Shown here: piece by piece, positions 2,747 to 62,425 of the stretch
Position numbering within the stretch: position 1 is the first letter of the stretch
Layout: every line of letters starts with the position of its first letter
NCBI GenBank assembly: GCA_964538855.1
Contig: CAZIEY010000001.1
Location: forward strand, 163,059-227,058
DNA from: an uncultured Candidatus Saccharibacteria bacterium
GTDB taxonomy: Bacteria > Patescibacteriota > Minisyncoccia > Phycocordibacterales > JAACPR01
Length of the DNA stretch: 64,000 bases
Reading direction: 5' to 3'
The notes under the pieces: generated by a model
Told to the model about the DNA's origin: nothing
What the model saw: only the letters and a program-made list of their open reading frames with translations
The model's database searches: none
Program-made: the position numbers and the translations under genes

Positions 2747-3262
2747 TTATTCATGGTCTTCAATATATTTTTTTATGTAGACCTTTTCAAAATAAGGTGG
2801 AATCAATGGGAAATATTTAGCAAAAAAACCTGAAGGTAATTTCTCTATTGATCTAATAACTTTTCGGCAATTGATGGAGCCGCAATTACAATCCATCTCC
2901 CAGTCCGTATGTTCAGATATTGAGTAATCGAATGTAAGTTCCTCACCGGCACTAATGTCTCTAAGAGCAATATAGGTTACACCATCATTACCGACTGCCA
3001 AGTTAGGGTCGCATCTATGATTAATGCACACGTAGGGATAGATCGGATCTATATACAAATCTTTATCCAAACCGACAATATTAGGAAGTGTTAATGACTC
3101 CTCCTTATTCTTTGGATGAAAATTGATTGTGGGACCTTTCATAACGAAAACTGCATCCCCTTTTTTAAAACTGCGGGAAGTAAATAAACCGTTTCCAGCA
3201 ACAGGACTTTGTTTAACGAACAAATGAGGCTCGATATCGTATTTTTCCTTCATACAATACAA
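2747..3262 (-). CDS. SET domain protein (putative lysine methyltransferase)
   Basis: 171 aa. Motifs GxG (AGNGLF), NHRCDPN, ELTFDY, and a post-SET Cys cluster CNCGSINC. Confidence 0.7.
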   Translation of the reverse strand: MYCMKEKYDIEPHLFVKQSPVAGNGLFTSRSFKKGDAVFVMKGPTINFHPKNKEESLTLPNIVGLDKDLYIDPIYPYVCINHRCDPNLAVGNDGVTYIALRDISAGEELTFDYSISEHTDWEMDCNCGSINCRKVIRSIEKLPSGFFAKYFPLIPPYFEKVYIKKYIEDHE

Positions 3263-4772: not shown

Positions 4773-5525
4773 TTACACCACCACCTTCGCGGCATCCCAC
4801 AAAAGCTCAAAAGCCACTTTTTCCATCTCAATAATATTTTTGTTACTAGTTGCAATAATGTGTACGGGTGGAATCGTCTGATGAATACCTACCACCGACG
4901 ATGTGATGGCTTTGCTCACAGACATTAGGGATGGTGATGTGAAAAAACGAACAGTTTTTCCCAAGGCAGGATGTTGCAGTACGAGATTTCGATTTTCTTC
5001 TGTGTCTTGAACGAGCAACGCGACCCTCACCCCCTTCTCGGTTCGACGCTTGATAAAAGATTGAAAATAATCCACATCATCTGAAATAAAAGAATTCGAA
5101 TTGCCGATCGCGTAATAATAATCTCCGACACGTAAATTATTAAGCAACGACTCGTAAAAGTTTTTAATCGGAGTTGTACCCTTCACCACAGAAAACTCGG
5201 TCGCTTCATGGGCTTGAGTGTGCAAAGCCTGCAATTCCGGGATAATGCCGCGAATTTTTGACTTGGTGAACTCGGCCATATTTTCCAATTGATCAGGTGG
5301 AATTGCGACATATTTCTTTTTCAAGCCAACATAGGTCTCTGTCGCGAAACCCTTATCAACTATTTGATGTAAAATCGGGTATACAGCCGTTCTCTCCATG
5401 CCAAGCACACTTGCAATATGAGCAATGGTGCTTGGACCATTAGCGATGAAGGCAGTATAAAGCTTTGCCTCTTGTTCTGAGAGACCTAATAATCCCAATG
5501 TTTCGTGTATATTCCGGTATTTCAT
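4773..5525 (-). CDS. TrmB-family transcriptional regulator
   Basis: N-terminal HTH (LGLSEQEAKLYTAFIANGPSTIAHIASVLGMERTAVYPILHQIVDKG) plus a C-terminal TrmB-like domain. The internal Met is preferred as start; the ORF extends to 5564. Confidence 0.7.
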   Translation of the reverse strand: MKYRNIHETLGLLGLSEQEAKLYTAFIANGPSTIAHIASVLGMERTAVYPILHQIVDKGFATETYVGLKKKYVAIPPDQLENMAEFTKSKIRGIIPELQALHTQAHEATEFSVVKGTTPIKNFYESLLNNLRVGDYYYAIGNSNSFISDDVDYFQSFIKRRTEKGVRVALLVQDTEENRNLVLQHPALGKTVRFFTSPSLMSVSKAITSSVVGIHQTIPPVHIIATSNKNIIEMEKVAFELLWDAAKVVV

Positions 5526-5656
5526 ATATTTGTATAAATATTTCTCACAACTATATAACCACATATAACCTTATAAATCAAGAACATAATGACGTAGATT
5601 CAATTCGATGTAATACATATTTTGACATCACATACGCCAGTGATAGGCTCAACTAT

Positions 5657-6766
5657 ATGAAAATAAACAAGATAATCATAGCGATTTGTGTCGTGATTGC
5701 CACGCTCGGTATTTTTTCCTATAACCACAATCGGGAAGGAACCCTACAAATAGGAGTAGTCGCGTCGCTTACGGGCCCCGGAGCATATTTCGGAGAACAG
5801 TTTGTTTCGGGTTTGTCGATGGCACGTGATGATATCAACGCTCGCGGTGGAGTACGCGGACAAAAAATTGAGCTTATTATAGAAGACAGCCAGACAAAAG
5901 ACACCACTGCCCTTTCGGCTGCCAAAAAGCTAGTCGAGGTCGATCACGTCTCGGTCATCCTAGGAGATTCATGGAATAGCACGACACTCGCAATGCATCC
6001 ATATCTCATGGAACAAAAAGTGATACTTGTTTCTCCGCATATTTCTCTGAACTCGCTTGCGGTAGAAGATTATGCATTCCGCCTGATTCCAAGTACACAC
6101 GAATTTGTCACCCCAATCGCCGACTATGCAGTTGCGCACGATGTACACAAAATTGCAATTGCGCGTGTGCAAAGTCAATTTGGGCAGGAACATGTGGAAT
6201 CTTTTAAGAAAATGTTTGAGGGTGATACCCGTACCATTGTTGCTGACGAAGTTTTCAGTCCATCAGCCACCGACATACGATCTGAGCTCACAAAAATAAA
6301 ATCACAAAATCCTGATGCGGTGTTCAATTTGCACTTATCTGGATTACCTGTCGGATTTCTAATAAAACAGGCGGTCGAAGTTGGTCTAAAGACGCAATGG
6401 TTTGCGGCGTGGAGCTTCGAGAACACAGCACTTCTCAAAGAATACGGCCCTATTCTTGAAGGTGTGATTTACCCTGCTTTTTATGATGAGACGGCTTCGG
6501 CGCGCTCGGAAAATTTTGTTGACCGTGTGAAGAAAATGCAAAAGCCACATGATATGTTTATCGCGCTTGGATATGACACACTCGCAGTGATATCAGATGC
6601 ACTCAACCAGAAAGATGTGCCTAACGCAGACAGTATAAAAAATGCGCTCGAAAATATGCAAGACTTTGAGGGTGTGTCTGGAACTTTTAGCTTCGATAAT
6701 AACGGGGACGCGGTGCGCACTATTTTCTTGAAGACGGTGAGAGACGGTGAGTTCGTGAAATTATAA
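5657..6766 (+). CDS. LivK/Peripla_BP_6-type solute-binding protein, membrane-anchored, orphan
   Basis: N-terminal TM anchor (MKINKIIIAICVVIATLGIF). IGVVASLTGPGAYFGEQ and ELIIEDSQ...SAAKKLV motifs of branched-chain amino-acid binding proteins. No permease or ATPase gene nearby. Confidence 0.8.
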   Translation: MKINKIIIAICVVIATLGIFSYNHNREGTLQIGVVASLTGPGAYFGEQFVSGLSMARDDINARGGVRGQKIELIIEDSQTKDTTALSAAKKLVEVDHVSVILGDSWNSTTLAMHPYLMEQKVILVSPHISLNSLAVEDYAFRLIPSTHEFVTPIADYAVAHDVHKIAIARVQSQFGQEHVESFKKMFEGDTRTIVADEVFSPSATDIRSELTKIKSQNPDAVFNLHLSGLPVGFLIKQAVEVGLKTQWFAAWSFENTALLKEYGPILEGVIYPAFYDETASARSENFVDRVKKMQKPHDMFIALGYDTLAVISDALNQKDVPNADSIKNALENMQDFEGVSGTFSFDNNGDAVRTIFLKTVRDGEFVKL

Positions 6767-6793: not shown

Positions 6794-7369
6794 TTACTCG
6801 CGATCACGAAACCCTATCGGCTCTTTCTGCTTCTCCTCCTCTATCAAAAATTGCCGAATAGCCTGAAAGACGATTTTGAAATGACTATCGTATTTTTTCT
6901 CGAGCAATTCAATCTTTTCCCGCAATTCTTTGTGCGAGTCGATCATCTCGCGCAGCTTTGTAAAAATTCGAATAATTTGAATGTTGACGCGAATCGCCTT
7001 CTCACTATTGAGCACACTCGAAAGCATTGCGATGCCTTGTTCGGTGAAGACATAGGAACCATATTTTATGTTATGCCCAGACTTATTTTTCAAGGTCGCA
7101 AATTGCGACCTTGGGTCTATTCCGTCGTTTGAGGTCGCAAATTGCGACCTCAAAAACATTTCCGTTTCTTCAACTGACAATTGAAACATGAAATCATCTG
7201 GAAACCGATCATGATTTCTTTTTACTGCTTCGTTGAGACGCTTCGTCACCACCCCATACAGTAACGCCAAATCCCTATCGAACATGACTTTGCGACCGCG
7301 AATATAATAAATTTTGTTTTTAATGTCTTGATGAGTCAAACTTTCGGCGATTCCAATTTCTTTTTTCAT
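6794..7369 (-). CDS. ORF6N-domain protein (KilA-N-like DNA-binding, antirepressor-type)
   Basis: IYYIRGRKVMFDRDLALLYGV.TKRLNEAVKRNHDRFPDDFMFQL matches the ORF6N domain. C-terminal coiled coil. Contains an in-frame duplicated RSQFAT segment. Confidence 0.65.
   Translation of the reverse strand: MKKEIGIAESLTHQDIKNKIYYIRGRKVMFDRDLALLYGVVTKRLNEAVKRNHDRFPDDFMFQLSVEETEMFLRSQFATSNDGIDPRSQFATLKNKSGHNIKYGSYVFTEQGIAMLSSVLNSEKAIRVNIQIIRIFTKLREMIDSHKELREKIELLEKKYDSHFKIVFQAIRQFLIEEEKQKEPIGFRDRE
7093..7150. repeat. Two direct copies of a 19-bp near-palindrome (aggtcgcaaattgcgacct) spaced 39 bp, inside the ORF6N CDS
   Basis: Seen directly. GGTCGC-N5-GCGACC inverted repeat at 7093-7111 and 7132-7150. Encodes the duplicated peptide RSQFAT. 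Confidence 0.8.
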
Positions 7370-7485: not shown

Positions 7486-7755
7486 TTACGCGCTCAAATG
7501 CTTTGAAACGAGCTTAGTCATTTCGAACATGTTCACCACTTTTTTGCCACCGAATACTACTTCGAGAGCGGCGTCGGCGTTAATATTTCGCTTGTTCTTT
7601 GGATCTTGAAGGTCATTTTTCTTGATGTATGCCCAGAGAGCCTTGACCACTTCTGATCGAGGCATAGGACCTTTGCCTACCACAGCGGCCAATTCGTCGC
7701 TTACTTTCATCGGTTTCATAAATGCAGATGTTGCTTTTCCTGTTTCTTTTGCCAT
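7486..7755 (-). CDS. SWIB/MDM2 domain protein
   Basis: 89 aa. LAAVVGKGPMPRSEVVKALWAYIKKNDLQDP...INADAAL is a typical stand-alone SWIB domain. Confidence 0.7.
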   Translation of the reverse strand: MAKETGKATSAFMKPMKVSDELAAVVGKGPMPRSEVVKALWAYIKKNDLQDPKNKRNINADAALEVVFGGKKVVNMFEMTKLVSKHLSA

Positions 7756-8683: not shown

Positions 8684-10864
8684 ATGCATCCACATTCCCC
8701 TCTCACCGAACATTTTCGCCTCAACGAATCGCAAAAGTTAGCGCTCGAAAAATTGCACATCAAAACGATCGAGGACTTGCTCTACTATTTCCCAACGCGT
8801 TACATCAACAGCGCAACCGTGCATTCGATTGGAACCTTGACCGAGAAAACCGAGGCGACTATTTACGGTACCATCAAGAAAATCAAAACTGGCAAAACGT
8901 GGCGTGGAAAAATGCCAATGGCCGAAGCAATTATTACTGATGGAACCAAAACTGTGCGAGCTATTTGGTTTCACCAACCATACATCGCGAAAATGTTTTT
9001 GGAAGGTGCAACAGTGCGACTCGACGGACGGGTTGGCAGCGCGGACAAAACCGGACGATTTACTCTGACGAATCCAAAAATCGAACATGCCGAGGGTGAG
9101 ATGCCGATCGCACCCGACGATTCCCTGTTCGCAGAAGCCGCCGCAAACCCCGCAAAATTCTACCCCGTCTACCCCGAATCGCGTGGAATAACTTCTAATT
9201 GGATGTATCATGCGATGCAAAAGATTTTTAAAAGCGGTTTGCTCGACATTGCCGCCGATCCAATTCCCACCGAAATTCTCGAGCGCTACAAATTACCAGG
9301 AATTAAAACCGCACTCATCTGGATTCATACCCCGCAAAAAGACAGCGACGCGACCGCGGCACGCAAACGCTTTGCGTTTGAAGAAATTTTTTACATTCAA
9401 ATCAGCAAACGTCTTGAGAAAGAAAAAACAGCACAATTAAAGTCATATGCAATTGCCTCAGACGCCGATGACATGCGTGATTCCAAAATCACAAAATTTA
9501 CTGCGAATTTCCCCTTCGAGATGACAGACTCACAACAACGCGCCATAACAGACGTGCTCGATGATATGCGCAAAGGCACACCAATGTCGCGACTACTCGA
9601 GGGTGATGTTGGGTCCGGAAAAACTGCGGTGGCAGCAACAGCAGTTTTCGCCGCAGTCGAAGCAAACCTACAGGCCGCCTATATGGCACCGACTGAAATT
9701 CTGGCCAAGCAACACTTTGAGAGCTTCATTACCTATTTTGAAAATTCGGCAAAAAAATTCGGATTGCAACGCAACATTGAAATCGGACTTCTCACAAGCA
9801 GTGGCTGTCGAAAATTTCCCTCAAAAATCAACCCTCGAGAATCGACGCCAATTTCACGAGCACAACTCTTGAAATGGGTTGCAGCCGGCCAGATTCCAAT
9901 TGTAATCGGCACACACTCGCTCATTCAAAAAGCGGTTGAATTCAAAAATCTCGCACTCGTCATTATCGATGAGCAACACAGGTTCGGTACGGCGCAGCGA
10001 CAAAAATTGGCGAAAAAAGAAGGTTTCGCACCGCACCTTTTGTCGATGACTGCGACGCCGATTCCGCGCACACTCGCGTTGACCATGTATGGAGACCTCG
10101 ACCTATCACTGCTTGATCAAATGCCCACTGGTCGCAAACCAATTATTACCGAGATCATCACACCGAAACGGCGCGCATACGTGTATGAAAAAATCCGAGC
10201 TGAAATAGCTGCTGGGCGCCAAGCCTATGTTATTTGCCCTCGCATCAACGAACCAGACCCAGAAAAAGAATTCGCGATTTTAGCGAAATCTGTTGCAGCC
10301 GAAGCAACCCGTTTGCGACGTGAAGTTTTCCCAGGCCTCGTCATTGCCGAGATGCACAGCAAGATGACACCGAACGAAAAAGACGACACTATGGCACGAT
10401 TCGCCGCAGGTGAAATTCATATTTTAGTTTCAACGTCGGTCGTCGAAGTCGGTGTGAACGTACCAAACGCGACCAATATCATTATCGAAGGTGCCGAACG
10501 TTTCGGTCTCGCACAATTACATCAATTACGCGGGCGCGTCGTGCGCAGTAATCATCAAGCCTACTGTTACGTCTTTACTGACTCGCGCAGCGAACAAACG
10601 CTGGCTCGTCTCAAGGCGCTCGTCACAGCACGAAACGGATTTGAATTGGCCGAACATGATTTGAAATTGCGCGGTGCCGGCGAACTTTCCGGCGGCGTCC
10701 AATGGGGTGTGAGTGACCTTGGTATGGAAGCTATCAAAAATATCAAGATGGTTGAAGCAGCACGTAACGAGGCAACTAAAATTGTCGCAGCCGATACAAC
10801 GCTTGCGCACTTCCCGCTTCTCAAAAAGAAAATCGCCCGCATCGGCGAAATTCATTTCGAGTAA
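8684..10864 (+). CDS. recG: ATP-dependent DNA helicase RecG
   Basis: 726 aa. N-terminal wedge/OB domain. Helicase motifs GDVGSGKT, DEQHRFG, and TATPIPRTL. Confidence 0.9.
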   Translation: MHPHSPLTEHFRLNESQKLALEKLHIKTIEDLLYYFPTRYINSATVHSIGTLTEKTEATIYGTIKKIKTGKTWRGKMPMAEAIITDGTKTVRAIWFHQPYIAKMFLEGATVRLDGRVGSADKTGRFTLTNPKIEHAEGEMPIAPDDSLFAEAAANPAKFYPVYPESRGITSNWMYHAMQKIFKSGLLDIAADPIPTEILERYKLPGIKTALIWIHTPQKDSDATAARKRFAFEEIFYIQISKRLEKEKTAQLKSYAIASDADDMRDSKITKFTANFPFEMTDSQQRAITDVLDDMRKGTPMSRLLEGDVGSGKTAVAATAVFAAVEANLQAAYMAPTEILAKQHFESFITYFENSAKKFGLQRNIEIGLLTSSGCRKFPSKINPRESTPISRAQLLKWVAAGQIPIVIGTHSLIQKAVEFKNLALVIIDEQHRFGTAQRQKLAKKEGFAPHLLSMTATPIPRTLALTMYGDLDLSLLDQMPTGRKPIITEIITPKRRAYVYEKIRAEIAAGRQAYVICPRINEPDPEKEFAILAKSVAAEATRLRREVFPGLVIAEMHSKMTPNEKDDTMARFAAGEIHILVSTSVVEVGVNVPNATNIIIEGAERFGLAQLHQLRGRVVRSNHQAYCYVFTDSRSEQTLARLKALVTARNGFELAEHDLKLRGAGELSGGVQWGVSDLGMEAIKNIKMVEAARNEATKIVAADTTLAHFPLLKKKIARIGEIHFE

Positions 10865-10874
10865 ATACAAAACT

Positions 10875-12713
10875 TTACCAACTTCCACCGCCTCCCCCTC
10901 CGCCACCTCCGCCAGAAGAACCCCCGCCGCCACTACCGCCAGGTGTAGAAGTTAAAGATATCTCGGCGTTTGCGCTAAAAGATGAAAGCGAACTATAAAA
11001 AATGGATGCGTTAAACATCGAACCCGTAGATCCCGAATACCATTGCGGAGCAACATTATAGATACCATCAAATTCCTTCGCCCAAATTTCAGCGACACCA
11101 AGCACCATAGCGTACGGTAAAAGCTTTTCAAAAAATTCTGGTTTTTTATCTGGTGCATTATGAAATTCGAGACGGCTTTTTTCAGCAATTTGTAAATAAT
11201 CTTTTAATCCCAAAATATATTCTTTAAGAGCGACACCCTTTGGAGTTTTCGCGGGACTAAAATAAGTAACGACCGAAATAATCGCACCGCACAAAATCAG
11301 ACTCAAAATAAATACGTCTGTGTGTGCGGGGAAAAATATACTCCCAATAAGTACTCCGAAGACAAGTGACCCAATTACTATCGCGAAAGCAATACCCACC
11401 ACAGAACCATTGAAGCTTAATCCCCCCTTCATTCTGCCAAGATTTCTATAATATCCTTTCTGAACAAGCGAATTCATCGCCTCCTTCGAAACAGTTTGCG
11501 CGTGCATATAAAATACATCTCGCAACTCTGACAAGAGCACAGATTTTTCTCCAACAGTCCCCACATCTACAGAAGTGTTGTGTGACTTACTCTTAAAAAT
11601 ATTTTTTAGAAATTGGGGCGCGAGCGGAAATGGCGAAGTTTGCATATTAAAGAGCGCATCCAAAAGAGTGCGATCAAACTTGTTGAGAGAATCATCCGCA
11701 TCTTTTAATTTCACTAATTTATAATCAAATTGTTTGATAAGCCAGAGTAATTTCGATTCGACTTGCACAATTTTCAAATAACCTCTCGTTGCCAAGTAAA
11801 TAATTTCGGCTGAAATATCCTTAGAAGTAATTTTCTGCTGAGCAAGCGCTGCTACTTCCATCGGTGTTAAATTATCCGGCACATCATATTGAGGCACTAT
11901 CACACCAGTACCACGCGGATCTCGACCGTACTTTTTCCAATACAAAAAAGACAAGACGAGCACAACAATTGGCAAAAGTATCGAGACAATATATCCCAAA
12001 TACATTGTGATAAAAAGTGACCTTTCATCTGAAGGTGTGTAAGGATGTATAACACCCTTATTAATTCCCGCAGCAATGGTTAAACCTTCCCCACTATGTA
12101 ACTCGCGCGGTGCAACAAAATAAAATTTTTCTCCCTTTTTTTCATACGTACATGTATTTGTAGACCCTATCACACCAAAATAACATGCGGCCTGGGTAGA
12201 AATTGCGTTTGACGGAAATGTAACGACAGCGCTCGAATACAGAATCGGCATATTCCAACCATTCCCCGTCACATCCCAATATATTTCATCAAAATTTTCG
12301 AACTGACCAACCGCTTTTGTTGCGCGATAATAAATATTATAAGTTTTCTGACCAGAAAATACTCGATCTGGATCTCCAATTTTTATTCGAAAATAATCAC
12401 CTTCTCTGAAAGTTGTAAAAATATACGGCTTTCCCACCTCATCAGTCACACGCACGTCGTCGATTTCCATCTTTCTCCCTTGGGATGAGTACAGATAAAT
12501 ATCTCTAAAAATTCCGTGATGTGATTCTGTTCCGGTGTTATAGACAATTGATTCCAAAACATTAACAGAGTTATCGACATGTACAGTGATATCTGCAGTG
12601 TAAGAAACGATATGCTCGTACGACAACGTATCAGTTTGAGCATGTGCTGAACGAGAAAAAACAAACCCAAAGGCAATTACAAATAAAAAGACTCGCCAAA
12701 TTCTCTTACGCAT
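10875..12713 (-). CDS. DUF2207-like membrane protein with C-terminal poly-Gly tail
   Basis: Signal peptide (MRKRIWRVFLFVIAFGFVFSRSAHA), an extracytoplasmic domain, 3-4 TM segments, and a C-terminal GGSGGGGSSGGGGGGGGGGSW tail. Internal Met chosen as start; the ORF runs to 12779. Confidence 0.55.
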   Translation of the reverse strand: MRKRIWRVFLFVIAFGFVFSRSAHAQTDTLSYEHIVSYTADITVHVDNSVNVLESIVYNTGTESHHGIFRDIYLYSSQGRKMEIDDVRVTDEVGKPYIFTTFREGDYFRIKIGDPDRVFSGQKTYNIYYRATKAVGQFENFDEIYWDVTGNGWNMPILYSSAVVTFPSNAISTQAACYFGVIGSTNTCTYEKKGEKFYFVAPRELHSGEGLTIAAGINKGVIHPYTPSDERSLFITMYLGYIVSILLPIVVLVLSFLYWKKYGRDPRGTGVIVPQYDVPDNLTPMEVAALAQQKITSKDISAEIIYLATRGYLKIVQVESKLLWLIKQFDYKLVKLKDADDSLNKFDRTLLDALFNMQTSPFPLAPQFLKNIFKSKSHNTSVDVGTVGEKSVLLSELRDVFYMHAQTVSKEAMNSLVQKGYYRNLGRMKGGLSFNGSVVGIAFAIVIGSLVFGVLIGSIFFPAHTDVFILSLILCGAIISVVTYFSPAKTPKGVALKEYILGLKDYLQIAEKSRLEFHNAPDKKPEFFEKLLPYAMVLGVAEIWAKEFDGIYNVAPQWYSGSTGSMFNASIFYSSLSSFSANAEISLTSTPGGSGGGGSSGGGGGGGGGGSW

Positions 12714-12897: not shown

Positions 12898-13800
12898 ATG
12901 AAAGAAGGTATCAACGAATCAAATTTATTACCACCAGACGCCCACGTCGAATTTCAAGGTCAGGGTGAAGATTCAGACGACTTCCCAAGACGGGTCGAGC
13001 AACCCTTCTTAGAACTTAACATGTGCGAACCTCAGGAAAAAGAGATTCACCCCATTTCAGCACTTCGCAAAAAACTCGATGATGTAAAAATAAGGACCGC
13101 ACAAAAAATCTTTGAGCTCAGAGCAGCGGAAGTACGTAAAGATCCCGCATCGGAAGCACAATTACGTGATGAAATACATAAACTCAGTACTGAGCATGAT
13201 GCGATACAGGATGATTTAGCTAAATTAGTGGCGCAAGCTCAGAAAGAATTAGATCGGCACGCAGGAGAACCTGGCACGGACGAAAAAACAAAAACAGGTC
13301 CAGAGAATGTATTCGCGACTTTGCCGACAGAACGCATAGTCGCTATTCGCGACATAGTAGAAGAAATCCCGCAATTGCGTACGCTCTACTCCTCATACAG
13401 AAATCATGCGAAAACACTACAGAAATCCCCTCTCCGTAGTAACTTATTTGCCCAAGTAGAAGCAACCCTTAGAAGAGGTACCCAAGAAGATATTGAGCGA
13501 GCCGAACTCATGCTGTACGAGGGAGATGACATCGAAATTAATCCTCAGAGCGTCTCAGGACTCAAACCAATAATCAACTCTATACCAAATTTAAAAACGT
13601 TACAGGATAAAATCCATCATGAACTAATTACAAGTAAACAGAAAACTGGGTTGGCGCGATTATTTAGTGGAAAGGTAGCCATTACTAATATTGAACTCGT
13701 CACATCTCTCATCGCACATTTACGTGCGCAACAAGATCGCAGATCGAAAGCACTTCTGAAAATACTATCCTACTATTCTCAAAAACAAAAACCTCGATAA
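12898..13800 (+). CDS. Hypothetical acidic coiled-coil protein
   Basis: 300-aa ORF directly downstream of the tRNA. No TM segment and no recognisable motifs. Confidence 0.5.
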   Translation: MKEGINESNLLPPDAHVEFQGQGEDSDDFPRRVEQPFLELNMCEPQEKEIHPISALRKKLDDVKIRTAQKIFELRAAEVRKDPASEAQLRDEIHKLSTEHDAIQDDLAKLVAQAQKELDRHAGEPGTDEKTKTGPENVFATLPTERIVAIRDIVEEIPQLRTLYSSYRNHAKTLQKSPLRSNLFAQVEATLRRGTQEDIERAELMLYEGDDIEINPQSVSGLKPIINSIPNLKTLQDKIHHELITSKQKTGLARLFSGKVAITNIELVTSLIAHLRAQQDRRSKALLKILSYYSQKQKPR

Positions 13801-13806
13801 GTACCC

Positions 13807-14211
13807 TTGATACAGAGTAGCGCAATTTGCTATGATTATACTATGACACCAGAAACACCAGGAGGTCCTAACGGATCAGAAATAGACAAGGATCTCGATA
13901 TGGAATTACGAGAAGCACAAGAAACATTAGCAGAAAAAAACAAGGAACTAATAGGTTTATTGGATGGCGGCAGATTACTTGAGATTCTCAGACGTATGTG
14001 GTATCGCGACGATTCAAATGCAGTTACAAGACAACACATGGGTATGGAAAAGCCAATGGCAGATGTTATTCTCGCCATCTGCGATACTGTCAGAAAAAAT
14101 GGTGATGTAGCTCTATTCAATGAACTTAGCGGAATAATCACAGAAGAAAGTCGTGCCGAAAGAGAATCGAAAGAAAAATTTGCACCGACAACAGAAATCG
14201 ACCCAGCATAA
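13807..14211 (+). CDS. Hypothetical acidic protein
   Basis: 134-aa ORF co-directional with the previous gene; start uncertain. Confidence 0.4.
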   Translation: MIQSSAICYDYTMTPETPGGPNGSEIDKDLDMELREAQETLAEKNKELIGLLDGGRLLEILRRMWYRDDSNAVTRQHMGMEKPMADVILAICDTVRKNGDVALFNELSGIITEESRAERESKEKFAPTTEIDPA

Positions 14212-14339
14212 CCACAATAAAACTCGACTTGGATGGCTCTGCTGAGTTTGGAAAATTGCGAACGACTTTTGGCGTAGGAGTATATAAACCATACTGATTA
14301 TAATCTCACACCGACTACCCCTTACGGCAACGCGCCATA

Positions 14340-16292
14340 TTACAACGCCTCCTTCTTCACCGGATGTGCAACTTTAATACCATGTGCAGCGAGCAACGCT
14401 TCGTAGTCTTCGCGTTCAATCGTTTCGACGTCGAGAAGGCGTTGCGCCAAAATTTCGAGGACTTTGCGATTTTCAGTGAGGATTTTTTCTGCGCGGGCAC
14501 GGGCTTCGGTCATGATGCGAGACACTTCGGCGTCGATTTTCGTTGAGACAGATTCAGAATATTCTTGACCTTCGATGCCACCGCGTCCGAATAATGTGCG
14601 GCCACTTCCCTCGAGGGCGATTGGTCCGAATGCGTCTGACATTCCATAACGTGTGACCATATCACGAGCAAGCGCTGTTGAAACTTGTAAATCATTGGAA
14701 GGTCCAGTCGTTACATCTCCGAATATCATTTGTTCAGTCACATAACCACCGAGTGACATTGCGAGGTCGTCGAGAAATGCTTTGCGAGATTGCAATTTGC
14801 GTTCTTCGTTTGGCAATTTCATTGTGTAACCACCCGCATGACCGCGCGCGATGATAGAAATTTTGTGCACAGGATCCGCGTCAGGCAAAATTGATGCAAC
14901 GAGTGCATGCCCCGCTTCGTGATATGCAGTAATTTCGCGTTCTTTTTTCGAGAGCAAGTGATTTCGGCGCTCAGGACCGAGCATGACTTTTTCAATCGAA
15001 CGAATCAAATCGAATTGTGCAACAGTTTTTCGATTTTCACGCGCTGCCAAAATTGCAGCTTCGTTCACAAGAGAATATAAATCCGCACCAGAAAATCCTG
15101 GAGTTCGTTGTGCGATAACTTCGAAATTCACGTCTTCAGCGAGCGGTTTGTTTTTCGCCTGCACTTTCAAAATCGCCTCGCGGTCTTTGCGGTCTGGCAA
15201 ATCAATAGTGACACGCCGATCGAATCGGCCTGGTCGCAAAATTGCAGGATCCAAAACGTCTGGACGGTTTGTCGCTGCCATCACAATCACCTTCTCATTC
15301 GGATTAAATCCATCCATCTCCACCAAAATTTGGTTAAGTGTCTGCTCGCGCTCGTCATTCCCTCCACCCGTACCGACACCGCGCGCTCGTCCCACAGCAT
15401 CAATTTCGTCGATAAAAATAATTGCGGGCGCCGCAGCTTTTGCAATTTTAAACAAGTCACGCACACGAGATGCACCAACACCCACAAACATTTCTACGAA
15501 TTCAGAACCAGAAACCGAGAAAAAGTTCACACCCGCCTCGCCCGCTGTTGCACGCGCAAGAAGTGTTTTTCCAGTACCTGGTGAACCCATAAGCAAAATT
15601 CCCTTTGGAATTTGCGCACCGATGTCGATAAACTTTTTCGGATTTTTGAGGAAGTCTACAATTTCCATCAATTCCTGTTTTGCTTCTTCATTACCAGCGA
15701 CGTCTTTGAATGTAACTTTTTTCTTGTCGCTTGGATTAAAGAGGCGCGCATTAGCTTGGCCGAATGTGAAAGCTTGCATGCCGGCACCTTTTACTTGGCG
15801 AGATAAATACCAAATAATGATTCCAATCAAAAGAATTGGGAAAATAAACGGAGCGCTGACCGCGAGCCAGTAGCCAAACCCAGACGGATTTTGAATGTCG
15901 ATTTTAATTGGAGCAAGTTCCGTCGCAGTAATTCCGTAATTCGACAATGTTTCAGACAATGCTGCATCACTTTCTTTTTGAGTTGTCTTTGTGGCTTCGG
16001 TCGGGGTACCCTTTTCATACACCACATTAATTTGATCGCCCGACACCGCGATTTCAGAAACTTTACCCGCGCGAATATCAGCGGCTAATTGCGAGAGCGC
16101 AATCTCTTCGACATTTTTCTTTTGCTCTGCCACAAATGTGTAGAGGAAAATAATCATAATGATAATCAAAAATGTTGTGCTAAGATTTGCAAAAAATCCC
16201 GCCGGCTTTTTTGAGTTGTGCGACTTTTTCATTTTGTGCTGCGGAGCCTGATGTGGCGCCCCACCTGGTGGCGTCTGATTGTGTTTGGTCAT
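14340..16292 (-). CDS. ftsH: ATP-dependent zinc metalloprotease FtsH
   Basis: 650 aa. Two N-terminal TM segments, Walker A ([13 protein letters not shown]), the SRH region, and the HEAGHAL zinc site. Confidence 0.95.
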
Positions 16293-25341: not shown

Positions 25342-27132
25342 TTAACGAAACTCCACTTCCTCCCCCTTATGACTCAACACGAATTCCTCCCACGATTTTT
25401 TGAATTCGGCGTCGCGTGCGAGCAGCTCATTAAACGAACCTTGATTGCGAATCGCGCCCTTGTCCAAAATCACAATGCGATCAAAATATTTGAGCAAGTT
25501 CATTTTATGAATTGATGCAATAATTGTGGCATCGCGAAAATTCTCGAAAATGTGTTTGTAAATTTTCACTTCGTTAACAGGATCAACTGAGCTGGTCGAT
25601 TCGTCGAGCAACATGATTTTCTTGTCCTTCGAGAACAACAACGCACGCGTTAACGCGAGACGTTGTTTCTGCCCTCCTGATAAATTCACACCTTTTTCAT
25701 TCACCACCGATTCGATTTTACGTGGTAATTGCTCAATCACATCAGTAAACATCGCAGCATCAGATGCACGGCGAATTTCCTCGTCGGTGAAGTCGAGCAA
25801 AAGTGTGATGTTTTCGCGAATACTTGCAGAAAAAACTTCGGGTTCCTGTGGCACCAATGTTGATTCCAAATCGAGGTCCGCAAAATTTGTTGTGATTGGT
25901 GTCGCACCGTCGATTGAAACCTTGGCAGAAGCCATTTCATACATACCGTGCAATATCTTCAACAATGTCGATTTACCAGAACCACTTTCCCCGATGAAGG
26001 CGATTTTTTCGCCGCGCTGTAATGCGAAATTAAAATCAACAAATTCTTTACGCACGCCAGTCGTGTCATAGGCAAAATTCAAATTAGAGATTGAAAGCGT
26101 ATTCCAATTTTCAATATGTCGCTTGTATGCACGTATATTTTTATCAAATGCAGCTTCGATAGGTTCAACGTTTTGCAGACGTGCTTTGTCCATGATCAAA
26201 TCGGCATACATATGCGTAAACGTATAATACACACCTATCAAGTTAGATAAATACAAATAAAGTGTGCTCAATGTACCAATCAATACAGTCCCTGTCGTGT
26301 GATATTGATTCCATACATAATATGCGAGAGGTACCGAGACAATACACGCAAATAATATTCCGCCAAGTGCCCATTTGGCCTCGATCCACTGATATTTGAT
26401 TTTAAAATTACCGAATGAAGCCCAGCTCGATTTCATGATGCTCTGTAAAATAGAAGATTCGATACCCAATACTTTCACTGTGGTGACATTTGAAAGACCA
26501 TCAAACACCTTCGCTGAAGCCTTATTTTCTAGTTCATTAATAATTTTATACTGCGGAATAATCTTCTTATCAAAACAAAAAATAATGAAAAGTGATAACG
26601 CCAACAATACTATCGCAATAGCGCCCACCGTCACATCAAAATACATGAGTGCGATTGTCGTACCGATTGCACGCACCCACACATACAAAAATGTAGATAC
26701 GTTACCTGCTGCTTGCGACAATGCTTCTGTTGATTTATTTACTTTGTCGATAGTATCTCCCGAATCGTGATCAGTGTGCCATGAAAGTGGTAAAGATAAT
26801 ACACCTTGGTATAAAAACTTTTTATAATTTCTATCGATACGAAATTGATTGTACATTTCAAGCAACGCACCAGGTGCACCAACGGCGCGCGCAATCAATT
26901 CAACAAAAACAGAACTTGCAATCAACAGGAAAATGAATGGCATGTTTTGCAAACCATTCACTTGGATTTCATTAATGAGCATTCCAAACGTCACAGGTGT
27001 AACTAACCACATTGCCTGGTTAATCAAAATAAGCACCGCAGACGCAATGAATTGAGGTTTAAACGCGCCAATAAAGCGCCAGATTTTACGTAGCAAAAAT
27101 ATCGTTGGCTCCTTTTTGAGAATAGAAAACAT
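25342..27132 (-). CDS. ABC exporter, fused permease/ATP-binding protein
   Basis: 596 aa. Six TM segments in the N-terminal half. Walker A GESGSGKST, signature LSGGQKQRLALTRAL, Walker B IMLLDEST. Confidence 0.9.
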   Translation of the reverse strand: MFSILKKEPTIFLLRKIWRFIGAFKPQFIASAVLILINQAMWLVTPVTFGMLINEIQVNGLQNMPFIFLLIASSVFVELIARAVGAPGALLEMYNQFRIDRNYKKFLYQGVLSLPLSWHTDHDSGDTIDKVNKSTEALSQAAGNVSTFLYVWVRAIGTTIALMYFDVTVGAIAIVLLALSLFIIFCFDKKIIPQYKIINELENKASAKVFDGLSNVTTVKVLGIESSILQSIMKSSWASFGNFKIKYQWIEAKWALGGILFACIVSVPLAYYVWNQYHTTGTVLIGTLSTLYLYLSNLIGVYYTFTHMYADLIMDKARLQNVEPIEAAFDKNIRAYKRHIENWNTLSISNLNFAYDTTGVRKEFVDFNFALQRGEKIAFIGESGSGKSTLLKILHGMYEMASAKVSIDGATPITTNFADLDLESTLVPQEPEVFSASIRENITLLLDFTDEEIRRASDAAMFTDVIEQLPRKIESVVNEKGVNLSGGQKQRLALTRALLFSKDKKIMLLDESTSSVDPVNEVKIYKHIFENFRDATIIASIHKMNLLKYFDRIVILDKGAIRNQGSFNELLARDAEFKKSWEEFVLSHKGEEVEFR

Positions 27133-51951: not shown

Positions 51952-53142
51952 TTAGGCAATAACCTTTGTGATAACACCAGCTCCAACTGTTTTACCACCC
52001 TCTCGGATAGCAAAGTGTTGCTGATCTTCAAGTGCAACTGGACATACCAATTTCACTGTGAATGTTGCTGTATCTCCTGGCATAACCATTTCTACTCCCG
52101 CCTTCAAAGTAACATCTCCTGTTACGTCTGTAGTTCGCATGTAGAATTGTGGCTTGTAACCAGTGAAGAATGGTGTGTGACGACCTCCTTCTTCTTTCTT
52201 CAACACGTACACTTCAGCTTCAAATTCTGTGTGAGGTGTAACTGAACCTGGGAGACACAAAACCTGACCTCGGTGAACATCTTCTTTCTTCAAACCTCGG
52301 AGGAGGAGACCTGCGTTGTCGCCGGCGATTCCTTCTTGCAATTGTTTGTTGAACATTTCAATACCAGTCACAGTTGTCTTCATTGTAGGTTTGATACCAA
52401 CAAGTTCGATGTCTTGACCGATTTTGATTGAACCTCGTTCAATACGACCAGTAACTACAGTTCCTCGACCTTCGATTGAGAAAACGTCTTCAACTGGCAT
52501 GAGGAAAGGCTTAGCCAAATCTCGAACTGGTTCTGGAACATATGTGTCCAAAGCGTTGATAAGGTCGAGAATTTTCTTTGCCCATTCATCAGATGCAGAT
52601 GTTGCTTCGAGAGCTTTCAAAGCTGAACCTCGAATAACAGGAGCGTTTGAACCGTCGTAACCGTGTTTATCGAGCAATTCTCGAATTTCAGCTTCAACGA
52701 GTTCGATCATTTCTGCGTCGTCAACCATGTCGCATTTGTTAATAAAGACCACGATCTTTGGAACACCAATTTGTTTTGCAAGCAAAACGTGTTCACGAGT
52801 TTGTGGCATCATACCGTCTGTTGCAGCAACCACAAGAATAGCACCGTCCATTTGAGCGGCACCAGTAATCATGTTTTTGATGTAGTCGGCGTGACCTGGA
52901 GCGTCAATGTGCGCGTAGTGGCGAACATTTGATTCGTATTCCTGGTGAGACAATGAAATAGTAATACCTCGAGCTTTTGACTCTGGTGATTTATCAATTT
53001 CATCAACTGACTTCTTGCTGGCCATTTTTCCGTCCAATGCAAGGACGTTCAAAATAGCGGCAGTAAGAGTAGTCTTACCGTGGTCAACGTGACCGATGGT
53101 ACCGACGTTGACGTGCGGTTTGCTTCGATTAAATTCTGCCAT
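51952..53142 (-). CDS. tuf: Elongation factor Tu
   Basis: 396 aa with [18 protein letters not shown], and NKCD motifs. Confidence 0.95.
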
Positions 53143-53339
53143 TGTTTTTAAATTAATTTAATAAAGATTCTAAATAACTCTGTCTTGATTCTCTTCAGGG
53201 CGACCTTAGCAGAAGGCACGAGAACGCGAGCCTCTGCCCAGATCACCCTACCCATTTCCGATTTTTTGCAATACAAAAAAGCGCAAAATGCGTAGGAATT
53301 ATATTATCAGAGTTTTTCCGTGTTTGCAAATAAATATGA

Positions 53340-54080
53340 CTAAGAGAGAAGGCTCCAAATCATCTTAAACCAAGTGCGAAAGCTGTCGGCGACATTTTTA
53401 TTAATGATCACGGTTAGCGTCGCGTTCTCGTCGATAATTTGACCATTCACATTAGAAAAGATCACTACCCTATCCCCAAAAATGTCTATCGTTGAGTTAC
53501 TAGAAAATCCTTTAGGTAAAAATTTATGTGTACCTTGGCTTGTCTCTAAGACACTTGCAGGAATAGTCTCTTTGCTTCCATCAAACAGAATGTGAAATGA
53601 GAGTTTTTTAGCCTTAGCCTCTTTTACGAATTTTGCGAAAACTGTCTCGATTTTATTATCCGACCAAGCACCCTTCCCTCCAATAGTATACAAATCCTCT
53701 CCAACATTCAAAATATCCTGCATATAATTTTTCCACCCCTCTATACCTTTGTAAATGTAAACTGCCTCGGAGACAGGTTCCTCTATAAACATTGCCTGCA
53801 AATTGGGCATGATTTTATTCAAAGCTACTTCTTTTTCCTGAATCTTTTCTTTCAATTTATTCGGATTAACAGCGTTATACTTGTTCTCTTTTCCACCCTT
53901 AATTTCGAAGACAAGCCCTTTTTCTGTTAGACGGTTTAAGGAATCGTAAATATTTCGTCTGTGAATATCTGTGTGAATAGAAAGTTCCCCCACAGTTGAT
54001 TCACCCCATTTTAAGAGCGATTCATAGAGAATCGCCTCGTTTTTCGCTAAATCCAGTTGGGTCAAAATATGGCTGTACAT
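53340..54080 (-). CDS. TrmB-family transcriptional regulator
   Basis: N-terminal HTH (EAILYESLLKWGESTVGELSIHTDIHRRNIYDSLNRLTEKGLV) plus a TrmB C-domain. Confidence 0.7.
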   Translation of the reverse strand: MYSHILTQLDLAKNEAILYESLLKWGESTVGELSIHTDIHRRNIYDSLNRLTEKGLVFEIKGGKENKYNAVNPNKLKEKIQEKEVALNKIMPNLQAMFIEEPVSEAVYIYKGIEGWKNYMQDILNVGEDLYTIGGKGAWSDNKIETVFAKFVKEAKAKKLSFHILFDGSKETIPASVLETSQGTHKFLPKGFSSNSTIDIFGDRVVIFSNVNGQIIDENATLTVIINKNVADSFRTWFKMIWSLLS

Positions 54081-54155
54081 AAGGAAATTGTTGTTAAAAG
54101 TTAATTAAATTTGATGTGGTGGTATTTGCCACTCGTTTAACATAGCACAGAATAT

Positions 54156-55235
54156 ATGGGTAGTCAAATTAATCAAACCCATATGCAAAAACAACAAAAA
54201 TTCTTAGTGGCGGTATTGATCGTAGCGACTGTAGCAATATTGACCCTTAATTCTAAAGTGGATAATACAGAAAGTATTAAAATCGGAGTAATAAGCGACT
54301 TTACTGGTCCAGCAGCGTATTGGGGCGAATCTTCCAAAGTTGGTGTAAACGTCGCGGTTAAAGAGTTAAAGGCAGAAGGATACAACGTTGATGTGACTTT
54401 TGAAGATTACAAGCTTGATGCACCGCGAGCAGCGACAGCAGCACAGAAATTGTCGAACATTGATAAGGTCTCTGCGATATACTCAGAATTCAATCCCGGT
54501 GCGATTGCAGCAAACTCTGTTTTAAAAGATACAGATGTATTTCACATGTATCTCGCAGCGATTACTTCCCCACTTAAAGACAACCCAAATGCATACAAAA
54601 CATATTTGGACTATGAGGCGGGATGTAAATTAATTGCACAGGAATTCAAAAATAGCGGAGTTGCTAAAATCGGCGTACTAAAAGCGAATCAAGAATTTGG
54701 AGAATTGTGTTTAGATGGGGTACGAGAAATATACGGTGACAAAATTGTTTTGGACTCATACAACCTCGGTGATACCAACTTCAAAACTCAGTTGTTAAAA
54801 ATCAACGCAGAAAAAGTAGAGGCGGTCATTAATGTCGGTTTCGAAGGAGACACGTTCAACACCTTAAAAGTTATGAACGAATTGGGATACTCATTAAGAT
54901 TAGGGACCGTAGAAGACACTATGAGCGACAAAGTAAAAACTACTTTCCCTAACCAAATTAAAAATGCTCTTACTTTTGGTTTCCAAGAAGTAAACAAAGA
55001 ATTCGTTAAGAAAGTCACTGCGGAAAACGGTGGTAAGTCTCTCGCAAGCAATTATGCAGCAGCCGAAGCTTACACCCACATCAAGCAAATCGTTAAGGCT
55101 CTAGATGCGTGTGATGAAGGCGATATGGAATGTACTAAGAAGCACATTGACATGTCTGCGCCAGATACGACTTTTGGATTTAAAAAGTTCAATGGACGTA
55201 TCGCGGACATTGGGATGCAGATATATAAGTACTAA
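54156..55235 (+). CDS. LivK/Peripla_BP_6-type solute-binding protein, membrane-anchored, orphan
   Basis: TM anchor. KIGVISDFTGPAAYWGESSKVG and VTFEDYKLDAPRAATAAQKL motifs. Confidence 0.8.
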   Translation: MGSQINQTHMQKQQKFLVAVLIVATVAILTLNSKVDNTESIKIGVISDFTGPAAYWGESSKVGVNVAVKELKAEGYNVDVTFEDYKLDAPRAATAAQKLSNIDKVSAIYSEFNPGAIAANSVLKDTDVFHMYLAAITSPLKDNPNAYKTYLDYEAGCKLIAQEFKNSGVAKIGVLKANQEFGELCLDGVREIYGDKIVLDSYNLGDTNFKTQLLKINAEKVEAVINVGFEGDTFNTLKVMNELGYSLRLGTVEDTMSDKVKTTFPNQIKNALTFGFQEVNKEFVKKVTAENGGKSLASNYAAAEAYTHIKQIVKALDACDEGDMECTKKHIDMSAPDTTFGFKKFNGRIADIGMQIYKY

Positions 55236-55277
55236 GGTTTAAAGCAAAAAACCACCCTCTCGAGTGGTTTTTTGCTT

Positions 55278-56345
55278 TTACTGCAACTGCTCAACGACCC
55301 ATTCCCCGCCAACAAGATCATTATTCTCGTCAAATGAATAGGTACCCGTGTACCCCCTATAATTCATTTCTCGAACATACTTGTTCAAATCGTCACCAGA
55401 CTTTCCTTCACGCATAGCCTGAACTAACATCATTGTTCCATCATATGCACGATCTGCGTACGATCCAGGATATCGACCATACTCTTTCTTGAAATCTTCT
55501 CTGAATTTTTGGGAAGCTCCGGGAATAACTACATACACATTATCTTTTGCGGCCACATTAATTTTGCCATCTTCGTCATGCTTTTTGGCAATCTCTGTGG
55601 CAGCTAAAAATGGTAGACCTGGGTGCAATTCTTGCACCTTATTAATAATGACAGCTGTTGAAGTGTCGAAACCTGTAAATAGAACTGAGTCCGCGCCAGC
55701 ACTGATAGTCTTGCTAACAATTGTCTGAATATCTTGACCAGAAGCGCCGTATGGAATCCTCTCGGTGATGACAAGATTTGCTCCGGCATTTGAGATGGCC
55801 TTTTCAAAAGGCTGTATGTGACTGTCTCCCCAAGCCCCCTGCTCGAGCACTATAGCGACCTTTTTGGCGCCGGTCTTTTTCAACCATTCTGTTGCTGACC
55901 CTTCTTTCAAAGCGTTCTTTGGGGCACCGAACAAAAAATAATCACTCTCTCCTTCAACATGTTCTGAGGTATTCGCTGGGTTAAATGATACGATACGTTT
56001 CTCTTGGATAGAGTCCGCAGCAGCTGCCGAGAGAAAACTCCATGTCGGTCCGATAATAGCCGCAACATGATCAATGTCTACTAATTTACTAACCGCACTA
56101 ACAGTTTTAATTGGTTCTGTTCCATCATCTTCATAGACGACTTCTAGGGTGATGCCATCTTTTTTTAATACAGACTTTGCGAATTCGATACCGTCTTTTA
56201 TATTCTGACCATCAACTGCGGCCATACCGGTAAGCGAAAGTACGGCGCCGATTTTAACATCGTGCACTTCTCCTGAATAATTGTTTGAAATAATAAAACC
56301 GATGATAACGACTACGATTGCGACAATTGATAAGGTTTTTTTCAT
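55278..56345 (-). CDS. LivK/Peripla_BP_6-type solute-binding protein, membrane-anchored, orphan
   Basis: TM anchor. KIGAVLSLTGMAAVDGQN and VVYEDDGTEPIKTVSAVSKLV motifs. Confidence 0.8.
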   Translation of the reverse strand: MKKTLSIVAIVVVIIGFIISNNYSGEVHDVKIGAVLSLTGMAAVDGQNIKDGIEFAKSVLKKDGITLEVVYEDDGTEPIKTVSAVSKLVDIDHVAAIIGPTWSFLSAAAADSIQEKRIVSFNPANTSEHVEGESDYFLFGAPKNALKEGSATEWLKKTGAKKVAIVLEQGAWGDSHIQPFEKAISNAGANLVITERIPYGASGQDIQTIVSKTISAGADSVLFTGFDTSTAVIINKVQELHPGLPFLAATEIAKKHDEDGKINVAAKDNVYVVIPGASQKFREDFKKEYGRYPGSYADRAYDGTMMLVQAMREGKSGDDLNKYVREMNYRGYTGTYSFDENNDLVGGEWVVEQLQ

Positions 56346-56459
56346 AATTTATTTTTTACTATGCATATAACCATACGACACTTTTTTGTCTTTATCAACA
56401 TATTTTTATGATGAAAATATGATACACTACACTATGTAAATAAACGTTAAATTAACCAT

Positions 56460-57221
56460 ATGTCAGACACTATTGATAAAAACAAAGATATCAAGCAGGA
56501 GCTTTCTTCACTTGGAATGGACGAAAACGAAGCCACTGTATACCTCTCCCTCCTCAAATTAGGAGAAGTGGGTGCATCAAAAATAGTCAGAGACACAGGA
56601 CTTCATGGGCAAACTGTATATGACGCATTACACAAACTCGAGACAAAAAATTTGGTCAGGTTTAATTTAATCAAAGGTCGAAGGAAATTTATTTCGCAAA
56701 ACCCATCCATTCTCTTGAATTTGGTTAATAAGCAGCAACAGATCGTCGAAAGTGTTTTGAATAAGATAGAAAAAAGATTCTCGATCATCGACACAGACAA
56801 TATTGAGATAATAAAAGGTAAAGATTCTTTTGTTATTAACGAATTCAAAATGTTGCAGGAAGTTCCAAAAGGTAGTGAATTACTCATTCTCGGAGGCAGC
56901 GGAGATTCTTTCATCGCCAATTTTGGAAATAAGTTTAACGAATATGATTATCAGAGAACGAAAAAAGGTATCTCGGTAAAATATCTCGGAAGCGAGACGC
57001 AAAAGAAATATTTGACCGATTCTGTAGACAGCCGACACAACTTTGAATACCGGGTTATTCCGCAAGTGTTTTCTGGTGTCACAAATATCACTATTTTTAA
57101 GAATCACGCAATAGTTATATATCTCTTTGATGAAAACACGACTTCTATAGTCATTAGAAATAAAAAGATAGTCGAGAGTTATGAAGGATTTTTTGAAAGC
57201 TTGTGGGGTTTGGGAAAGTAG
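56460..57221 (+). CDS. TrmB-family transcriptional regulator
   Basis: HTH (EATVYLSLLKLGEVGASKIVRDTGLHGQTVYDALHKLETKNLV) plus a TrmB C-domain. Confidence 0.7.
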   Translation: MSDTIDKNKDIKQELSSLGMDENEATVYLSLLKLGEVGASKIVRDTGLHGQTVYDALHKLETKNLVRFNLIKGRRKFISQNPSILLNLVNKQQQIVESVLNKIEKRFSIIDTDNIEIIKGKDSFVINEFKMLQEVPKGSELLILGGSGDSFIANFGNKFNEYDYQRTKKGISVKYLGSETQKKYLTDSVDSRHNFEYRVIPQVFSGVTNITIFKNHAIVIYLFDENTTSIVIRNKKIVESYEGFFESLWGLGK

Positions 57222-57284
57222 TTAGTCAAAAGAAATAACTCACAACATGCGCGAAATGTTGCAGGAAATCTTGTCTGCTAATAA

Positions 57285-57815: not shown

Positions 57816-57860
57816 AAATTTGTTTAGATTTAATGAATTAATAATTTGAGTAAACCGTGA

Positions 57861-58690: not shown

Positions 58691-58691
58691 A

Positions 58692-59870: not shown

Positions 59871-59871
59871 A

Positions 59872-60981: not shown

Positions 60982-61041
60982 TTTTGATAATTAATTTAAT
61001 AAATAAAGGTTGCTTAAATTATAGCACCTAAATAAAATTCA

Positions 61042-62424: not shown

Positions 62425-62425
62425 A

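Follow-up and report, generated by a model that had tools for sequence, protein, structure and literature searches.

A 64-kb window of contig CAZIEY010000001.1 (64,000 nucleotides from an uncultured Candidatus Saccharibacteria bacterium; the window is the whole stretch of DNA analysed) contains three gene pairs in which a regulator of the TrmB family (R) is transcribed divergently from a binding protein of the Peripla_BP_6 family (B). We consider it probable that these pairs are plug-in cassettes, in each of which a receptor is governed by a repressor encoded beside it, and that they feed one shared ATP-binding cassette (ABC) importer of the HAAT family. A sequence-only reading of this DNA had described the three pairs, here called modules 1–3 (W1–W3; Table 1), and all six genes were found to be intact open reading frames (ORFs) with the expected Pfam matches. 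That reading had called module 1 an orphan and copy 1 of 3. There are indeed three copies in the window, but this count understates a much larger family: the same pairing recurs in 91 pairs from other loci, and the association of R with B is therefore beyond chance and part of a phylum-wide pattern. The observation that no permease or ATPase gene accompanies the pairs was also upheld, as no Liv-type permease or ATPase gene was found in the window, where the sole ABC protein is an MsbA-like exporter (25342–27132). The modules are orphans in position only.

Species-representative genomes were scanned with the permease of one such locus, L004, yielding 80 loci that were annotated by profiles for four kinds of gene: R, B, P (permease) and A (ATPase). 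Judged by record title, almost all of these loci are from Patescibacteria (Parcubacteria, Paceibacterota, Kaiser-, Taylor-, Nealson-, Falkowbacteria and others). The basic unit at the LivH-like loci has the canonical order B P P A A. Divergent R–B pairs were present within 10 kb in 30 of the 80 loci, giving 71 pairs in total, and 71 of the 85 R genes found at the permease-centred loci had a divergent B partner. In 65 of these 71 pairs, B and the permease are transcribed in the same direction. The pairs are often inserted among the transporter genes themselves, as in L024 (... P P [R B] [R B] A [R B] ...) and L047 (... P [R B] P A [R B] [R B] A). Orthologues of the window genes occupy positions of this kind: the module 2 orthologue in L040 lies directly upstream of two permease genes, the module 3 orthologue in L024 lies between the permeases and the ATPase, and a B1 orthologue in L085 (51% identity) lies between two permease genes. 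These placements in or beside LivH-LivM-LivG-LivF operons, together with the permeases of a second contig described below, support the suggestion of the sequence-only reading that the binding proteins may dock onto a distant shared transporter.

Some loci carry large arrays. In L004, 20 kb of DNA holds eight B and six R genes together with one LivH-like permease and one LivF-like ATPase gene, and L008 has nine B genes (two of them cut at the ends of the locus) and at least six R genes. The L004 permease is ~65–88% identical across hundreds of Patescibacteria proteins, and the R and B proteins of such loci are mostly 15–30% identical. The single permease and single ATPase of L004 (3323–4927) stand where most loci show P P A A; either the missing partners lie outside the 20-kb locus, or this lineage uses a reduced set. 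L004 also contains a gene for a 486-aa protein without a Pfam match between modules (10767–12227), and a phage-integrase-family gene at its start.

A candidate transporter for the organism itself was found on another contig. Permease P0061 shares 77% identity with the L004 permease, and has records both in NCBI and in Logan run SRR13208906. The same run also yields, via B3, an 11-kb exact copy of the region of modules 2 and 3 (L001); when the contig index was queried for exact copies, B1 and R1 (P0001) gave no match, and only B3 gave a contig. The contig carrying P0061 (L090) is 54 kb long in Logan and 106 kb in NCBI, and has a GC content of 40.3%, compared with 41.5% for the window. Its tetranucleotide composition correlates with that of the window at r = 0.94, compared with 0.84–0.92 for 20.9-kb pieces of the window against the rest of the window, and a maximum of 0.83 (median 0.59) for 47 other Patescibacteria loci against the window. 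L090 carries one LivH/UrtB-like and one LivM/UrtC-like permease gene amid five R and six B genes. Because these R and B genes are only 21–31% identical to those of modules 1–3, they are further paralogues, and not the copies of a second strain. On the most economical reading, L090 would be another part of the window's genome, and if L090 belongs there, this genome would hold one pair of permease genes with at least nine B genes and at least eight R genes. A gene for an NYN-domain (RNase-like) protein (10976–11512) separates the two L090 permease genes.

The R proteins match the Pfam family TrmB (PF01978) at 46–52 bits (R1, 52; cut-off 25.6) over the N-terminal ~70 amino acids (aa) only. NCBIfam gave sub-threshold matches only, to TrmB, TrmBL1 and TrmBL2 models. 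A word-based homologue search with R1 alone returned three matches, and a five-sequence profile was used instead. The family is large, with 1,632 clusters (50% identity) matching the R profile at E <= 1e-30. A profile of 25 R proteins aligned to TrmB (3qph) in the winged helix, and to TrmBL2 (5bpd, 5box, 5bqt) over the full length, covering residues 12–260 of 5bpd. An AlphaFold2 model of R1 (mean pLDDT 82) consists of a winged helix, one long helix (78–108) and an alpha/beta domain. When this model was compared with the PDB using Foldseek, the best eight matches were all TrmBL2 chains (E 6e-13 to 1e-11), and the next matches, to the C-terminal domain, were the PLD-fold proteins NucT and Zucchini. 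No R protein matched PF11495, the sugar-binding effector domain of TrmB and TrmBL1, at E <= 0.01; only the PLD-like subdomain is present, and R is ~250 aa long compared with 338–341 aa for TrmB and TrmBL1. Because of the full-length and fold match to TrmBL2 and the lack of a PF11495 match, R is best classified as a bacterial protein of TrmBL2 architecture, and not as a sugar-sensing TrmB. R is a soluble cytoplasmic protein without a membrane segment. A family-invariant tyrosine (R1 Tyr49), followed by Asp in R2 and R3, aligns with TrmB Tyr50, which is a DNA-recognition residue (PMC4158304).

Many of the best matches to the R profile (P0152, P0167, P0217) have an N-terminal TrmB winged helix followed by two to seven tandem PLD-like domains of ~135 aa. 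The lengths of these relatives are ~385, 520, 655, 790, 925 and 1060 aa, and the repeats end ...F(E/D)xLWNQD.

The B proteins match Peripla_BP_6 (PF13458) at 216 (B1), 122 (B2) and 135 (B3) bits (cut-off 31.7). B1 aligned over ~330 residues with LivJ, 4gnr, 3td9 and other branched-chain amino-acid binding proteins in the PDB (E 1e-24 to 1e-27), and keeps the full two-lobe LivJ-like fold. NCBIfam matches were sub-threshold only, to LivJ/LivK subfamily and urea-binding models, with equivalog scores far below cut-off. In all 17 B proteins examined, the N-terminus is basic and then hydrophobic for ~15–20 residues, and has no lipobox; the hydrophobic 15-mers have mean Kyte-Doolittle scores of 2.9–3.8. 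These features predict that the B proteins are exported, and probably tethered to the membrane by an N-terminal anchor. Such a tether is what any ABC receptor needs in a cell without an outer membrane. In a HMMER alignment of B1 with 1z15, the LivJ residues that we take to be ligand contacts, Tyr18, Ser79, Thr102, Tyr202 and Glu226, correspond to Phe45, Asn107, Ser130, Leu and Trp respectively, the last two of the LivJ residues presumably forming the grip on the amino-acid backbone. If these residue roles are right, B1 retains two features of the LivJ site, the aromatic residue of the lid and one hydroxyl.

Within the window, R1–R3 are 21–25% identical over their full length and B1–B3 are 19–25% identical, and the three copies are ancient paralogues. 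Orthologues of both members of each module were identified in other genomes. Identities of R and B respectively were 68% and 67% (67–71% by method) between module 3 and L004, 58% and 53% between module 3 and L024, 52% (52–53%) and 60% between module 3 and L008, 45% and 47% between module 3 and L006, 50% and 54% between module 1 and L002, and 46% and 51% between module 2 and L040. The nearest neighbours, among other loci, of R and of its partner B belonged to the same pair in 33 of the 91 pairs, compared with a mean of 1.05 and a maximum of 7 when partners were shuffled (2000 permutations). Co-duplication of R and B, on which the sequence-only reading had proposed a phylogenetic check, was borne out, together with their joint inheritance, by this nearest-neighbour result. 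The similarity scores of R and B were also correlated across the 91 pairs (Pearson r 0.66). For the first 17 pairs, a Spearman Mantel test gave no significant correlation (r = 0.08, a value reached by 1744 of 10000 permutations), because most paralogue distances are saturated. The modules occupy differing positions in different genomes.

The control region between R1 and B1 is 131 bp long after correction of the gene starts, in agreement with the shared region of 130 bp given by the sequence-only reading, and it is also 131 bp long in the orthologous locus L002. The R1 start was fixed by agreement with the orthologues P0002 and P0003 (the ORF is readable back to 5564). The start of B1 as listed, a TTG ORF from 5465, was rejected as an artefact that overlaps R1, with the starts set by orthologue comparison. 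A block common to module 1 and L002, ATGTCAAAnTnTGTAnnACAT, is identical at 17 of 21 positions and lies at an equal, ungapped distance from the B start, the remaining spacer having diverged. It contains TTGACA (5622–5627, plus strand), a hexamer that resembles a −35 box for B1 and precedes the ATG of that gene by 29 nt; assuming normal promoter spacing, transcription of B1 would start at its start codon. The corresponding block common to module 2 and L040, CGAGTGGCAAATAC(C/T)ACCACA, is identical at 20 of 21 positions in spacers that are otherwise unalignable, and contains TTGCCA (54126–54131, plus strand), a −35-like hexamer for B2. Both the distance from this block to the B start in L040 and the N-terminus of the L040 orthologue, which aligns at MQKQQKF, indicate that ATG 54183 is probably the true start of B2. 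Each block includes a dyad, and module 3 has a dyad of its own (Table 1). The dyads are kept within orthologue groups and differ between paralogues. Repressor sites are classically laid out as a dyad across a −35 box, here that of a receptor gene, and by this analogy the dyads may be operators for the adjacent R proteins.

For the three intergenic regions, the sequence-only reading had proposed a motif search for a shared operator. None was detected beyond chance: the best common 8- to 14-mers of the three window spacers, on both strands, were no better than those of shuffled sequences, and a single common operator was rejected on this ground. The lack of a shared motif fits R proteins that are only ~25% identical to one another. 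A scan with the sigma-70 consensus found promoter-like sites no more often than in shuffles, and the hairpin between B2 and B3 was not picked up. The sequence TATCAC...GTGAT in the module 1 spacer resembles the archaeal TGM motif; it was dropped as a candidate, not being conserved in L002.

The arrangement that we favour would work as follows. B would be a solute receptor of LivJ/LivK type, held outside the membrane by its N-terminal anchor, and R a DNA-binding protein of TrmBL2 type in the cytoplasm, with its gene divergent from that of B. By binding a paralogue-specific dyad over the −35 region of its own B gene, R would set the amount of receptor. It would act as a repressor of the neighbouring B gene, possibly of itself too, and an intracellular signal, perhaps the imported compound, may act on its PLD-like domain. 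B1–B3, having no transporter of their own, would hand different ligands to one shared ABC translocator of LivH/LivM/LivG/LivF type. The permease genes of this organism would most likely lie on another contig, within a larger array of the same cassettes. In this manner a very small genome could widen its range of uptake by adding cassettes of receptor and regulator, and not whole transporters. A broader form of this proposal is possible, and we put it forward more tentatively: an expandable Patescibacteria 'receptor library', in which dozens of diverged LivJ-type receptors, each with a private TrmBL2-derived regulator that senses the same or a derived ligand intracellularly via its PLD-like domain, would all feed a single conserved translocator (permease ~65–88% identical, compared with ~20–25% for receptors and regulators).

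Several observations weigh against parts of the receptor-cassette arrangement. The ligand of B1 is quite possibly not an amino acid, because the LivJ Tyr202 and Glu226 positions are Leu and Trp; non-amino-acid ligands occur elsewhere in the LivJ/HAAT family. The pairing of R with B appears not to be absolutely fixed, as the B1 orthologue of L085 is partnered with an R protein only 28% identical to R1 (12928–14977), which may represent a regulator swap. The conserved blocks in the spacers hold promoter hexamers and could be promoter sequence only, and the same could be true of the module 3 dyad. Ligand sensing by R is speculative, because no effector is known for TrmBL2, a general chromatin protein and the solved structure closest to R, and because R has no effector-domain match. 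The assignment of L090 to the window's genome is drawn from sample identity and composition, and not from an assembly record; in the 21 kb covered, up to 10 kb from the L090 permeases, no LivG/LivF-type ATPase gene was found, and the genome scan with the L004 permease returned no locus from the window's own contig. The sequence-only reading had held that a clearly co-regulated liv-type permease/ATPase operon elsewhere would refute its interpretation. To the extent that composition and sequencing run place L090 in the same genome, liv-type permease genes do exist elsewhere, as LivH- and LivM-like genes amid R–B pairs.

The sequence-only reading had offered a further possibility, that the B proteins are ligand sensors. 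As extracellular sensors independent of a transporter, they would signal through a partner, as in systems of the LuxP/LuxQ or AmiC/AmiR type. Sensing by Peripla_BP_6 domains is established elsewhere, Liv-type permease and ATPase genes are absent from the window, and a gene for a 541-aa membrane histidine kinase (HATPase_c; 1081–2706) lies ~2 kb from module 1. However, with B outside the cytoplasm and R lacking any membrane segment, the two proteins by themselves cannot pass a signal through the membrane. The kinase is probably unrelated to module 1, because it is not conserved beside the R1–B1 orthologue in L002, and no antiterminator, kinase or chemoreceptor partner recurs in L002, L004, L006, L008 and L090. 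AmiC/AmiR of Pseudomonas aeruginosa also uses a protein of this binding-protein fold family with a gene regulator. AmiC is cytoplasmic and binds its regulator directly, whereas B1–B3 have sequences for export or anchoring, and R binds DNA and is unrelated in type. With the orthologous modules embedded in Liv transporter operons, a soluble cytoplasmic R and no conserved signalling partner, sensing without transport gained no support, and we regard it as unlikely.

It could also be supposed that R is a general nucleoid or chromatin protein, and that it adjoins B as a result of duplication of a two-gene unit. TrmBL2, an archaeal chromatin protein and global repressor (5bpd, 5box, 5bpi, 5bqt), is the best structural and profile match of R, has the same three-part architecture and a similar length (~250–264 aa), and R has no match to the effector domain PF11495. 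TrmBL2 is an abundant single-copy protein that binds DNA without sequence specificity (PMC4158304). R, in contrast, is only 16–18% identical to it, and is multi-copy and locus-linked, with paralogue-specific conserved dyads nearby. For a chromatin protein it would be unexpected that a genome has at least eight highly divergent copies, every one linked to a single B gene; R and B co-diverge, and the spacer dyads are conserved within orthologue groups and differ between paralogues. The distribution of R thus appears to argue against sequence-independent chromatin binding of the TrmBL2 kind, and a chromatin role is in our view improbable. A role of the cassettes at the cell surface, in host-cell contact or another non-nutritional function, with diversification under host pressure and only incidental synteny with Liv genes, would accommodate the extreme divergence of the paralogues (19–25% identity) and the different genomic places of the modules in different genomes, and Patescibacteria are often episymbionts. 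Yet the full two-lobe LivJ-like fold is kept, with E values down to 1e-27 against solved amino-acid binding proteins, and the B genes are co-oriented with, and interleaved among, permease and ATPase genes. We consider a surface role of this kind very improbable.

The proposed receptor cassettes have precedents in part. Several HAAT receptors may share one translocator, as do LivJ and LivK on LivHMGF in Escherichia coli, and the rhizobial Bra system has extra, unlinked BraC-type proteins. B1–B3 are homologues of LivJ and LivK, the principle of several receptors for one translocator would be the same, and the cassettes of relatives flank or interrupt LivH-LivM-LivG-LivF-type genes. In the present case, however, there are up to nine receptors per 20 kb (and, if L090 is part of its genome, at least nine in this organism), each receptor has its own divergent regulator, and paralogues are only ~20–25% identical. 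The receptors also appear to be anchored by an N-terminal hydrophobic segment and not free in a periplasm, and on the residue roles assumed above the backbone clamp of LivJ is only partly conserved in B1. In Thermococcales, the gene for TrmB neighbours that for the binding protein of an ABC importer, and TrmB acts at a palindrome in the malE promoter (PMC4158304). The modules resemble this system in having a winged-helix protein beside a receptor gene, in a promoter palindrome at which R is proposed to act, and in the DNA-contact tyrosine. They differ from it in their bacterial host, in a receptor of the Peripla_BP_6 and not the MalE class, and in the lack of the sugar-binding subdomain in R; moreover, R appears to control one receptor gene and not a whole operon, and has many paralogues per genome.

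The coordinates of the modules and their control elements are given in Table 1. Modules 2 and 3 are arranged as mirror images, R2(−) B2(+) B3(−) R3(+), in a block between tuf and rplL-rplJ. The hairpin between the convergent genes B2 and B3 has a predicted dG of −20.3 kcal/mol (z = −5.35), and none of 200 shuffles was as stable. The ribosomal neighbourhood of this block (51952–64000) is unusual, with the minus-strand order fusA (3′ end, 63572–64000), four large secreted or TPR-type proteins (58692–63541), rplJ, rplL, the two R–B modules, tuf and the S10 operon. Modules 2 and 3 and rplJ-rplL occupy the place where fusA and tuf normally adjoin. Module 1 is flanked by genes for a SET-domain protein (2747–3262; PF00856, 50 bits) and a SWIB/MDM2-domain protein (7486–7755; PF02201, 108 bits), which are eukaryote-type chromatin domains, here in a bacterial genome. 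Directly downstream of B1, on the opposite strand, lies a gene for an ORF6N/KilA-N-type, phage-antirepressor-like protein (6794–7369; PF10543, 106 bits).

Table 1. Genes and control elements of the three regulator–receptor modules in the window
Feature	Coordinates	Strand	Description
R1	4773–5525	−	250 aa, starts MKYRN; TrmBL2-like regulator; winged helix, coiled coil and PLD-like C-terminal domain
R1–B1 spacer	5526–5656		131-bp divergent control region of module 1
Module 1 block	5608–5628		21 bp, ATGTCAAAATATGTATTACAT (minus-strand reading), dyad ATGT-N13-ACAT; candidate R1 operator overlapping the B1 promoter
B1	5657–6766	+	369 aa, starts MKINK; LivJ/LivK-type (Peripla_BP_6, HAAT family), predicted N-terminal signal anchor
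R2	53340–54080	−	246 aa; TrmBL2-like regulator; orthologue in L040 (46% identity)
Module 2 block	54115–54135		21 bp, CGAGTGGCAAATACCACCACA (minus-strand reading), dyad GTGG-N9-CCAC; candidate R2 operator
B2	54156–55235	+	Peripla_BP_6 binding protein; real start probably ATG 54183 (350 aa)
Hairpin	55241–55278		Putative bidirectional terminator common to convergent B2 and B3; perfect 15-bp stem
B3	55278–56345	−	355 aa; Peripla_BP_6 binding protein; orthologues in L004, L008 and L024
Module 3 dyad	56399–56421		AT-rich, CATATTTT-N7-AAAATATG, in a block conserved among W3-type orthologues; overlaps divergent promoter-like sites
R3	56460–57221	+	253 aa; TrmBL2-like regulator; orthologues in L004, L024 and L008

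Patescibacteria (the Candidate Phyla Radiation, CPR) have tiny genomes from which most biosynthesis is absent, and must take metabolites from hosts or the environment. To our knowledge, how they choose and regulate their imports is largely unknown, and the phylum is thought to be poor in regulators. The sharing of a translocator by several receptors (LivJ/LivK) and a TrmB-family repressor beside an ABC receptor gene (Thermococcales) are already known. What appears to be new here is the class of receptor, the TrmBL2-type regulator, and the expansion of strict one-receptor, one-regulator cassettes inside and around one highly conserved translocator operon in genomes well under a megabase. No description of the association was found in a literature search that paired TrmB with Peripla_BP_6 and with Patescibacteria, CPR and Parcubacteria; one may still be published. 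If the proposed arrangement is correct, a sizeable share of a sub-megabase genome would be devoted to a modular uptake system. The broader receptor-library proposal, if true, would amount to an undescribed one-receptor, one-regulator logic, and would give bacterial TrmBL2-like proteins their first assigned function. The regulators would provide rare testable pairs of transcription factor and operator in CPR, and purified receptors could be screened for ligands, which may show what these uncultivated cells eat. The conserved translocator with its hypervariable receptors would be a natural experiment in how receptors dock with translocators.

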